The notes under the pieces were generated by a model. That model was not told where the DNA came from, searched no databases, and saw only the letters and a list, made by a program, of their open reading frames with translations. Positions 3,481-5,223 of a DNA stretch of 5,418 nt are shown one piece after another; the stretch's first letter is position 1, and every line of letters begins with the position of its first letter. This DNA comes from Candidatus Wukongarchaeum yapensis (GTDB lineage: Archaea > Asgardarchaeota > Wukongarchaeia > Wukongarchaeales > Wukongarchaeaceae), in the NCBI GenBank assembly GCA_016840425.1, contig JAEOSI010000161.1:1-5418 (forward strand), given 5' to 3'. The position numbers were made by a program, and so were the translations under genes.

Positions 3481-3636
3481 ATGCCACCCTATAACTTAAC
3501 AATCCCCCATAATGCCCCAGCAATTAAATAAACTTTAATTTCATAAAAAAAATAAAAAAGAAAATGGAGTAAAAGTTATAATAAACAAAAAAGAAACGGC
3601 TTCAAACGAGTGAAATTTTAGTTTTTAACAAAGTAG

Positions 3637-3711
3637 GCGACGGTAGTCAAGCGGTTAAGATTCCGGCCTTCCAAGCCGGCGTCCCGGGTTCGAATCCCGG
3701 CCGTCGCACCA
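3637..3711 (+). tRNA. tRNA-Gly (anticodon TCC), intronless, CCA encoded
   Basis: Acceptor stem GCGACGG (3637-3643)/CCGTCGC (3701-3707). Anticodon arm CCGGC-CTTCCAA-GCCGG with TCC at 3670-3672. T arm CCGGG-TTCGAAT-CCCGG. Discriminator A3708, CCA 3709-3711. Confidence 0.97.
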
Positions 3712-3741
3712 CCCCTCTCCCCCTAATTAGATTTTAACTTC

Positions 3742-3786
3742 TTCGGCGAGAAGTCCCCTTGCGAAAGCTGGGGGATGAAAGCCGAA
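3742..3786 (+). repeat. Left-end imperfect palindrome of the mini-IS (putative TnpA-binding hairpin)
   Basis: Outer stem TTCGGC (3742-3747)/GCCGAA (3781-3786), a purine-rich internal loop, GTCCCC (3753-3758)/GGGGAT (3771-3776), and an apical GC-GAAA-GC. Confidence 0.8.
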
Positions 3787-3790
3787 CAAC

Positions 3791-3810
3791 AATAATAAAC
3801 TATTTATAGT
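3791..3810 (+). promoter_or_regulatory. Putative archaeal BRE/TATA promoter inside the mini-IS
   Basis: A-rich AATAATAAAC followed by TA-TTTATAGT (3803-3810). Standard archaeal spacing would put the start site near 3832-3835, where the structured RNA begins. Confidence 0.5.
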
Positions 3811-3833
3811 CATAAGAATAACAATATAGAAGA

Positions 3834-3881
3834 GTAGGACAGGGACTGTCCGAATTTACGCCTGTGGAGATGGATGAATAA
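3834..3881 (+). pseudogene. tnpB: 3'-terminal remnant of tnpB (IS605 OrfB)
   Basis: Reads VGQGLSEFTPVEMDE*, which resembles the G-x-G-x-x-E-x-T-P-V-E tail at the end of IS605/IS1341 TnpB proteins (recognised from memory, not searched). The frame is closed upstream by TAA at 3819-3821, so only a fragment remains. Confidence 0.65.
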
Positions 3882-5223
3882 TAATGATCCCGTCGTTGAA
3901 ACAGGAAGCTTCCTGCAAAAGCTGGGAGTAGTTCACATGTTTCATAATTCCTCCTTTTTTATAATGGTAATATAGAAGGACTATTGTTATGGTCACGCTG
4001 GCAATCACTATTCCTGCCCAAAGCCAAGGAAAGCCTTTTTTAGGAGTTGTAACGCTTTTGGCTGTTTCTGAGTAATAGATTTTGTATTCACCGTCAACGT
4101 TTTTTTGCCATACTATGTGCGCTTTCCCCTCCTTATCAAGGAAAAGAGAAGGAAATTCTTCGTCTCCTTGGTTTCCGCTTACTTTTTCAGGCTCTTTAAA
4201 AAGTTCTTCCTCTACATTATTGGAAAAATAAATACCCCTTTTTTCCCCTTTTTCTTCCTTTCCCTGCCATACTATGTGGCTTTTTCCGTTTAAGTCGACA
4301 AAAATAGAGGGATGAACCCCTTCAAACAAAGTTTTTGAAACGTTTACTGGAACAAAGAAATTTCCGCTATAACCTTTTATATAGTAAATTTCTCCCCTAT
4401 CTTCCTCATAAAGCTCCCAAGCTATGCGTATTAGTCCATCAAGACCCACAAAAAGGGAAGGATAATAGTCATCAAAATCATTAGCTGTGACGTTCACCAG
4501 ATTAGAAAAATCAAGGGCGGCGGTTGAACTTTTTACATAATAAATTTCCGAATCTTTATCACCATAACCGTTCCAAGCAACATGTATATCCCTATTAGAA
4601 TCGACATATAGGGATGGATACATATCATTTAAAGGACTTTTTGAAACATTTACAGGGGTAAGAAAACTTTCTCCCGTCTTTTTTGTATAGTAGATCTCCC
4701 AGTCCCCTGTAGCGTTTCCCTGCCATACTATGTGAGCAATACCTTCTCCATCCACAAAAAGGGACGGATTCCAATCTTCAAAAACGTTATTTGATACATT
4801 TATCGGCTCTGAAGAGGATAGATTACCTATACTTGATTCTAAATAAAAGATTTCTCCTCCATTTTCAGTTTCTTCCTGCCATACCATGTATAAGATTCCT
4901 TCCGAGTCTACAACTAATCGGGGTTTAAGATCGTCCTTATCATTATCAGTCACAACTTTATAAGAAAAGCTACCGCCCAAATTATTAGCGTAAAAAATTT
5001 CAAAGTCTGTACCGTTTTTCCCACTCCAAACTACATGCGAAACACCATTACCATCCACAAAAAGGCAGGGATGACGATTATCAAAAACAGTAACCCCACT
5101 GATCTCCATTATGTCAGTGGGAGTTTTCCATCCTGCCTTAACTGCAAAGCAACCATTTAAAAGAAACAAAAAAGATAAAAAGACCACTAAAAACTTCTTA
5201 AAACCCGCCCTTTTCTTCTCCAA
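3856..5223 (-). CDS. Secreted/surface protein: signal peptide, seven ~50-aa repeats (probable 7-bladed beta-propeller, BNR-like), C-terminal transmembrane anchor; last 26 aa derived from the inserted mini-IS
   Basis: N-terminus MEKKRAGFKK-FLVVFLSFLFLL-NGCFAVKA. Seven repeats of P-S-L-F-V-D-x-x-G-x-x-H-I-V-W-Q-x(7-9)-E-I-Y-Y. TM segment WLWAGIVIASVTITIVLLYY followed by a basic tail. TTG start. Confidence 0.85.
   Translation of the reverse strand: MEKKRAGFKKFLVVFLSFLFLLNGCFAVKAGWKTPTDIMEISGVTVFDNRHPCLFVDGNGVSHVVWSGKNGTDFEIFYANNLGGSFSYKVVTDNDKDDLKPRLVVDSEGILYMVWQEETENGGEIFYLESSIGNLSSSEPINVSNNVFEDWNPSLFVDGEGIAHIVWQGNATGDWEIYYTKKTGESFLTPVNVSKSPLNDMYPSLYVDSNRDIHVAWNGYGDKDSEIYYVKSSTAALDFSNLVNVTANDFDDYYPSLFVGLDGLIRIAWELYEEDRGEIYYIKGYSGNFFVPVNVSKTLFEGVHPSIFVDLNGKSHIVWQGKEEKGEKRGIYFSNNVEEELFKEPEKVSGNQGDEEFPSLFLDKEGKAHIVWQKNVDGEYKIYYSETAKSVTTPKKGFPWLWAGIVIASVTITIVLLYYHYKKGGIMKHVNYSQLLQEASCFNDGIIIIHPSPQA
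3909..3928 (+). repeat. Right-end imperfect palindrome of the mini-IS
   Basis: CTTCCTGC-AAAA-GCTGGGAG with one T.T mismatch and one G.T pair. It is preceded by GAAG (3905-3908) and followed by TAGT-TCAC (3929-3936). Confidence 0.8.

Follow-up and report, generated by a model that had tools for sequence, protein, structure and literature searches.

The 5,418-nt stretch of DNA analysed here (the window) comes from Candidatus Wukongarchaeum yapensis and carries a 199-bp element at positions 3738–3936. It is contig C168 of that organism's assembly, G000 (2.16 Mb in 277 contigs, 92% complete). Judged by its ends, copies and flanks, the element derives by deletion from a tnpB element of the IS200/IS605 family. 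It is non-autonomous and gene-less, a mini-transposon (mini) resembling the palindrome-associated transposable elements (PATEs). It retains the left end (LE), an LE-proximal candidate TATA box (TATTTATA) and a complete scaffold of the omegaRNA type. We propose, with a probability of roughly 70%, that the element is a self-promoted omegaRNA locus acting in trans. Intact TnpB proteins would serve this locus and cut the empty allele, TTTAA joined to the flank, which would favour retention or homing of the element.

A multi-copy mini-transposon without a gene

The element lies immediately 3' of TTTAA, and the target is not duplicated. Using window 3712–3960 as a BLAST query, we found eight more copies in the same genome, spanning the whole ~205 bp at 73–97% identity (two on contig C77 and one each on C88, C177, C160, C147, C201 and C268). 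The mini family thus has at least nine copies, with identical ends and unrelated flanks. When the copies are aligned with their flanks included, homology begins exactly at TTTAA and ends straight after GTTCAC. These sharp limits between unrelated flanks indicate a mobile, multi-copy, gene-less element. Minis and full-length copies alike have TTTAA, or rarely TTTTA, directly 5' of their left end. No sense open reading frame of 40 or more amino acids was found within 3738–3936, and what remains of tnpB is the equivalent of its last ~29 codons, in agreement with an earlier, sequence-only reading of this DNA that had described nearly all of the gene as missing.

Terminal inverted repeats are absent. 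Instead, both ends contain imperfect subterminal hairpins (3754–3775 at the LE and 3908–3929 at the right end, RE), which share a 13-nt core in direct orientation (repeat family D4). The LE of the window element can be aligned with the LEs of the other minis and of full-length elements. The features that the sequence-only reading had located, namely the TATA-like motif TTTATAGT at 3803–3810, the hairpins, the CCTGT/ACAGG pairing and the TCAC end at 3936, were all found at those places.

The scaffold is a conserved, structured module

Full-length tnpB elements of this genome end in ~117 nt with which the 103-nt scaffold (window 3834–3936) can be aligned. Their tnpB stop codon falls within the RE-hairpin loop, ~15 nt before the element ends. 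The module therefore combines the 3' end of the coding sequence with the right end, the usual location of TnpB omegaRNAs. Four helices can be traced in the window: stem 1 (GGACAG-GGA-CTGTCC, 3837–3851); stem 2, formed by long-range pairing of CCTG(T) at 3861–3865 with (A)CAGG at 3901–3905 (core pairs 3861–3864/3902–3905); stem 3, a hairpin at 3869–3894 with a shortened apex; and the RE hairpin, followed by the tip GTTCAC at 3931–3936.

An nhmmer profile identified 27 complete copies of this module in the genome, of which 16 are long, nine are short like that of the window and two belong to a third type. The only difference between short and long forms is at the stem-3 apex: in place of the CCGAGA-GAAA-TCTCGG hairpin, the short form has an AT-rich loop that is 14 nt shorter; in the C144 and C154 copies the same apex is shortened in other ways. 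RNAalifold analysis of the 27 copies recovered stem 1, the long-range stem 2, stem 3 with its variable apex and the RE hairpin, with covariation in stem 1 and the RE hairpin. We also considered a pseudoknot between GAAUU (3852–3856) and AGUUC (3930–3934). It can pair in all 27 copies but is lost in distant relatives, for which reason we do not claim it.

A covariance model built from the 27 copies (R1) scores the window scaffold at 102.5 bits and detects the module (loci L123–L151) in 39 of the 151 genomes sampled from the phylum. These modules stand beside open frames of 377–514 codons and also at places without any long frame. Their length ranges from 93 to 175 nt, the variation lying entirely in the stem-3 apex, and nearly all end in GTAGTTCAC. 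In an alignment of 33 sequences from across the phylum, 95% of cells are paired, compared with 33–46% when the partners are slid by one to three columns. Compensatory changes on both sides occur at 24 of the 31 pairs, and none of 500 shuffles reached the observed values. Stem 1 alone is represented by five different helix sequences.

A candidate promoter at a fixed distance from the scaffold

The box TATTTATA occupies 3801–3808 and is present in eight of the nine mini copies. A mini from another species (genome G001, contig C79) matches the box at 8/8 positions but the following 25-nt spacer at only 13/25, and the mean pairwise identity is 0.93 for the box versus 0.80 for the spacer. The distance from the TTTATA core (3803–3808) to the first scaffold base is 24–26 nt in all copies. 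The expectation that related copies would keep the promoter-to-scaffold spacing while their guides vary is thus borne out in the siblings and in the second species, in spite of a diverging spacer. Full-length elements carry TTTATAAA 24 nt before the tnpB ATG.

The origin of this arrangement is suggested by the mini type found on C154. Some 35 nt, from GATGAAAGCCGAA through TATTTATA, are shared with the window element bar one base, and the two diverge right after, suggesting that a deletion brought the candidate promoter at the left end of the element itself up to the scaffold. The sequence-only reading had supposed that a deletion happened to leave a promoter at the correct spacing. The candidate TATA box is indeed there, but it was not placed by a lucky deletion alone, as it belongs to an LE-proximal region common to C154. 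We infer that the family that spread is the one whose predicted start (~3833–3836) coincides with the first base of the scaffold.

Intact TnpB proteins with matching right ends

The genome contains 31 matches to the TnpB TNB-domain family. Two intact genes encode 397-residue TnpB proteins that are 81% identical to each other (C59, 6013–7204; C137, 8308–9499), both with HTH, OrfB_IS605 and TNB domains. The C59 protein matches ISDra2 TnpB with E = 1e-43. In an alignment to 9yyg_A, a 408-residue chain that agrees with ISDra2 TnpB in length and aligned range, its residues D, E and D fall at the positions corresponding to 191, 278 and 361 and make up a complete RuvC triad, and the same RuvC motifs are kept in the C137 protein. 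The right ends of both genes are ~72–75% identical to that of the mini overall, with one 44-nt stretch at 91%. The full-length tnpB with a matching right end and RuvC residues that the sequence-only reading had asked for therefore exists twice, with its triad intact.

The only complete IS200-type TnpA (137 aa, 139 bits) in this 92%-complete assembly is encoded at C70:7589–8568, with a tnpB immediately downstream that is cut short by the end of the contig. The left-end hairpin at this locus, CTCAAATCC..GGGTTGAG and then GATGAAT, has a layout like that of the minis and an unlike sequence. The left-end subtype of the mini also occurs on C68, C217 and C232, which carry no tnpB.

The element-free allele exists in natural strains

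Logan contigs from four metagenome runs were aligned to window 3500–4300. In contigs from X16 (soil) and X11 (mangrove), ...GATTTTAA is joined directly to ATGTTTCAT (ATATTTCAT in X11), skipping 3738–3936. The X16 contig follows the window to 3721, continues with ...TAATTAGATTTTAA and resumes at 3937; the X11 contig has the same joint and resumes at 3940, with ATA instead of ATG. Contigs of X1 and X3 cross the left and right junctions of the filled site. Based on these empty and filled contigs, we conclude that 3738–3936 was inserted without duplication and is polymorphic among natural strains. Since TTTAA is joined directly to ATGTTTCAT in related strains, the predicted target, a target-adjacent motif (TAM) plus guide, exists in nature, and TTTAA+ATGTTTCATAATTCCT, the target foreseen from the filled site, is exactly the element-free allele of X16 and X11.

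The 3' flanks, and hence the predicted guides, are different in every mini copy. No second TAM-adjacent match to the guide of the window element was found in the genome. The T-run at 3955–3960 is host sequence with no equivalent at the other copies; it could end a transcript ~20 nt into the guide. Genome G001, of the same genus, is element-free at this site and was rejected as a precise empty site, as its spacer measures 26 nt versus 6 nt. At another locus, the mini copy C177:4059–4257 (minus strand) sits inside a tnpB gene. Its 16-nt guide agrees at 14 of 16 positions with the sequence right behind TTTAA in two tnpB copies without the C177 insertion, at C61:1016 and C212:1832.

Deletion breakpoints of several gene-less derivatives spare the scaffold

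Several other, separate gene-less derivatives were found. The C175/C268 type has the same junction as the window family and keeps the long apex. The C5 type retains the LE, the promoter and ~30 tnpB codons and then jumps to 8–10 nt before the scaffold, whereas a different, ~100-nt structured spacer abuts the scaffold in the C144/C154 type. On C45 a right end stands alone, beginning ~22 nt ahead of the scaffold. None of these breakpoints cuts into the scaffold: the gene-less derivatives keep everything from its first base onwards, and alterations are confined to the apical hairpin.

The C144/C154 type is a second kind of mini, ~280 bp long (C144:3474–3747, minus strand; C154:4354–4634), containing an LE, a TATA box, a GC-rich conserved spacer of ~100 nt and a scaffold that is shortened still further. 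Between the two copies, compensatory changes (TCGAAATA/TATTTCG versus TCGTGCTAC/GTAGCACG) are seen in the spacer, which may be an extra RNA domain. A further variant is an insertion of ~270–340 bp in the loop of the LE hairpin, seen in three copies of the left end that the minis share (C175:3535–4060; C253:9828–10305, minus strand; C121:906–941, minus strand). It lies exactly between CCCTGCGAA and GAAAGCTGGGG, starts with ACAGTCTATCCGCG and ends with GGGTAGACTG, which suggests another small element with the hairpin loop as its target.

Proposed mechanism and alternative explanations

In the mechanism that we favour, the TATA box would start transcription at ~3833–3836, giving an RNA of ~120 nt that consists of the 103-nt scaffold and a guide of ~16–20 nt taken from the flank (ATGTTTCATAATTCCT...). 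This RNA would be loaded in trans by the catalytically intact TnpB of a full-length sister element, such as the 397-residue proteins of C59 and C137. The complex would then cut TTTAA plus guide, that is, the element-free allele, either after excision or on a sister or incoming chromosome, and repair from the filled copy would restore the element, resulting in retention or homing. Transposition itself would need a Y1 TnpA, also in trans. A search of RNA data sets for an 801-bp stretch listed no run that contains it, and one metatranscriptome shares a fraction of 0.11 of the element's sequence words; these two results speak neither for nor against expression.

Several observations weigh against this proposal. 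In a window this rich in AT, TATTTATA alone is at chance level (0.45 occurrences expected; at least one in 66 of 200 shuffles), and the single-sequence fold is modestly better than that of shuffled sequences (z = -2.5). The support for the TATA box and for the fold comes from conservation and covariation rather than from one sequence by itself. The alignment used for covariation was itself fitted to the model, which favours the structure and makes the result somewhat generous. Moreover, the stems overlap coding sequence in the full-length copies, and the RE hairpin is also needed as single-stranded DNA by TnpA, so that its covariation does not tell an RNA function from a DNA function. The 5' partner of the pseudoknot is missing or mismatched in distant relatives. 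Searching Rfam, whose families include IS605-associated and other sRNA models, with the complete window and E values up to 10 gave no credible match in the element; the sole overlap is a chance match to CrcZ at 3786–3857, with 18.7 bits against a gathering score of 95. The scan for known RNA families that the sequence-only reading had recommended thus came back without a matching model. With regard to ancestry, the left-end subtype of the mini, GATGAAAGCCGAA, differs from GATGAATCGCGG of the intact tnpB copies, our search found no full-length parent with the exact left end of the mini, and the complete TnpA on C70 belongs to an element with a different hairpin sequence. Finally, deletions that remove the scaffold do occur, as seen in two ~49-nt LE/RE hybrid relics (C104, C160) and one 51-nt remnant (C109). 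These relics are single copies, compared with nine copies of the scaffold-bearing mini. In both hybrids (C104:5115–5159, minus strand; C160:797–845), TTTAA is followed by the left foot, a single hairpin and the right tip GTAGTTCAC; recombination between the LE and RE hairpins, which are similar, apparently gave rise to them.

Could the element be a passive shell, a miniature inverted-repeat transposable element or PATE mobilised by TnpA, in which the scaffold is an unused, recent leftover of tnpB, conserved through youth and by hitch-hiking with the right end? Six copies are 94–97% identical, pointing to recent amplification with little time for decay, and both the scaffold-less relics and the lack of significance of the TATA box by itself would fit such a history. 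The more diverged copies tell a different story. At 73–86% identity, and with one of them in another species, they keep the TATA box and the stems, the latter with compensatory changes, while spacer and left end drift. This argues against a passive shell, the main rival of our proposal, which we consider unlikely. In addition, several types of derivative retain the whole scaffold, and the ~100 nt that are kept far exceed the RE hairpin and tip with which the ~49-nt relics make do.

A role at the DNA level, with stems 1–3 forming part of the single-stranded substrate for excision and integration by TnpA, is suggested by the fact that IS200/IS605 ends act as folded single-stranded DNA, and the RE hairpin is certainly a DNA signal as well. 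G-U pairs supply only part of the support for the fold, but G-U or U-G is the commonest combination at several positions (13 of 27 copies at one pair of stem 1, 15 of 27 at one of stem 3). Such pairs would be G·T mismatches in DNA, and their frequency makes a purely DNA-level role very improbable. Furthermore, the layout of the stems matches the solved omegaRNA of ISDra2, and the left end has no counterpart of stems 1–3. Least credible, in our view, is that the RNA guides a nuclease-dead TnpB derivative to bind and regulate the 3' end of the host gene. The guide does fall within the last codons of a minus-strand gene, and repressors of the TldR type are known (PMC13622181). However, TldR-type guides belong to fixed, non-mobile loci and aim at promoters rather than at the 3' ends of genes, the guide is here a mere insertion flank, as in every copy, and the locus is mobile, with a recent and polymorphic insertion. 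No dedicated inactivated partner was identified, and the D-E-D triad is intact in those TnpBs that share a matching right end with the mini, which leaves the nuclease-dead partner contemplated by the sequence-only reading unsupported.

A self-promoted guide locus acting in trans on its own empty site is therefore the explanation that we prefer. Minis outnumber intact nuclease genes in this genome, and a more far-reaching idea, which we regard as speculative and rather doubtful, is that the mini family as a whole is a selected set of self-promoted, trans-acting guides rather than a passive parasite, in which the fusion of promoter and scaffold is conserved and the scaffold naturally minimised, multiplying the targets of a few Asgard TnpBs. 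If this were true, the minis would represent a step towards guide loci detached from their effectors, as in CRISPR arrays.

Relation to known systems

Elements of this type are already known. PATEs of Geobacillus stearothermophilus often encode omegaRNAs that need TnpB in trans from other insertion sequence copies (Meers et al., 2023; PMC10055086). Standalone omegaRNAs (Altae-Tran et al., 2021; summarised in PMC10691335) are mobilised and accompany loci that bear effectors; with compatible effectors they are reported to function in trans. Given these reports, the novelty that the sequence-only reading saw in a guide-only locus was overstated. The window element is a clean and well-preserved natural example that leaves the current picture of the mechanism unchanged. 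Like the Geobacillus PATEs, it is protein-less, with only an LE and an RE. It differs from them in its archaeal, Asgard-type host, its TAM (TTTAA), its naturally apex-shortened scaffold and its candidate archaeal TATA box 24–26 nt before the scaffold, and in being known from sequence alone. With standalone omegaRNAs it shares the occurrence of loci without effector or transposase in genomes that also hold effector-bearing loci; the difference is that trans use in this genome is deduced from scaffold homology only.

The closest structural comparison is with the ISDra2 omegaRNA. In the cryo-electron microscopy structure 8H1J its functional scaffold comprises 116 nt, and the part upstream is dispensable (Trim1). 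Stem 3b is disordered and its removal improves activity (Trim2), the tetraloop of the terminal hairpin is at -20 to -17, and the 3' strand of stem 2 is at -35 to -32 (Nakagawa et al., 2023; PMC10097598). The long module described here has 117 nt and likewise overlaps the tnpB 3' end. Counted from 3936, the window tetraloop (3917–3920) and CAGG (3902–3905) fall at -20 to -17 and -35 to -32, respectively, and the shortened apical hairpin corresponds to the dispensable stem 3b. The natural minis, which lack everything upstream and have a shortened stem-3 apex, are thus similar to the engineered forms Trim1 and Trim2. The ISDra2 RNA and the one described here have no sequence similarity, and the pseudoknot is not confirmed here. 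The TAMs also differ, being TTGAT for ISDra2 and TTTAA here. Another archaeal parallel is provided by the sotRNAs (sense overlapping transcripts) of haloarchaeal IS1341-type tnpB genes, non-coding RNAs that likewise overlap the 3' end of tnpB but have been described at full-length genes. In the present element, in contrast, the gene is deleted and a candidate promoter abuts the RNA.

To the known examples this element contributes an Asgard-type host, an empty site that was observed directly, a covariance model spanning the phylum, and natural truncations similar to minimal omegaRNAs made by engineering. Sequence data are enough to reveal the exact empty site, the polymorphic insertion, candidates for the partner nuclease and a scaffold supported by covariation across the phylum. 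The natural truncations map the dispensable parts of the RNA, namely everything upstream of the scaffold and the apical hairpin, in agreement with the engineering of ISDra2. Such a map could be of use in designing compact guide RNAs for thermophilic or archaeal TnpBs.

Genomic context

Table 1. Annotated features of the element and its surroundings, in window coordinates
Feature	Position	Strand	Basis
tRNA-Gly(TCC), upstream neighbour, outside the element	3637–3711	+	ARAGORN; Rfam, 68 bits
TTTAA target site/TAM	3733–3737	+	5' of the left end in copies; kept in empty-site contigs
Left end (LE), imperfect hairpin at 3754–3775 with GAAA loop and T·T mismatch	3738–3790	+	Alignment with other LEs
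Candidate archaeal TATA box TATTTATA	3801–3808	+	In 8/9 copies; putative function
AT-rich spacer, predicted start near 3833–3836	3809–3833	+	Conserved spacing; start predicted
omegaRNA-type scaffold, 103 nt	3834–3936	+	Homology to tnpB 3' end; R1 model; compensatory changes
Predicted 16-nt guide ATGTTTCATAATTCCT, flank DNA	3937–3952	+	Variable 3' flank; empty-site joint
Host gene, repeat/propeller-like, with C-terminal membrane helix	3856–5223	-	Open frame, 455 codons

The insertion point is four codons ahead of the stop of the minus-strand host gene. In the filled allele the host frame continues 27 codons into the element and acquires a new 26-residue tail, VNYSQLLQEASCFNDGIIIIHPSPQA (window 3856–3948, minus strand). 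In the empty allele, read by hand from the joint in the metagenome contigs, the tail after ..KKGGIMKH would be LKSN followed by a stop. The only Pfam match of the host-gene protein is a weak one to GH43. The window also encodes Nep1/EMG1, for which a protein-atlas search pointed to the archaea and no further, and the genome contains a profilin match and a 444-bit actin match, which fits an Asgard archaeon.

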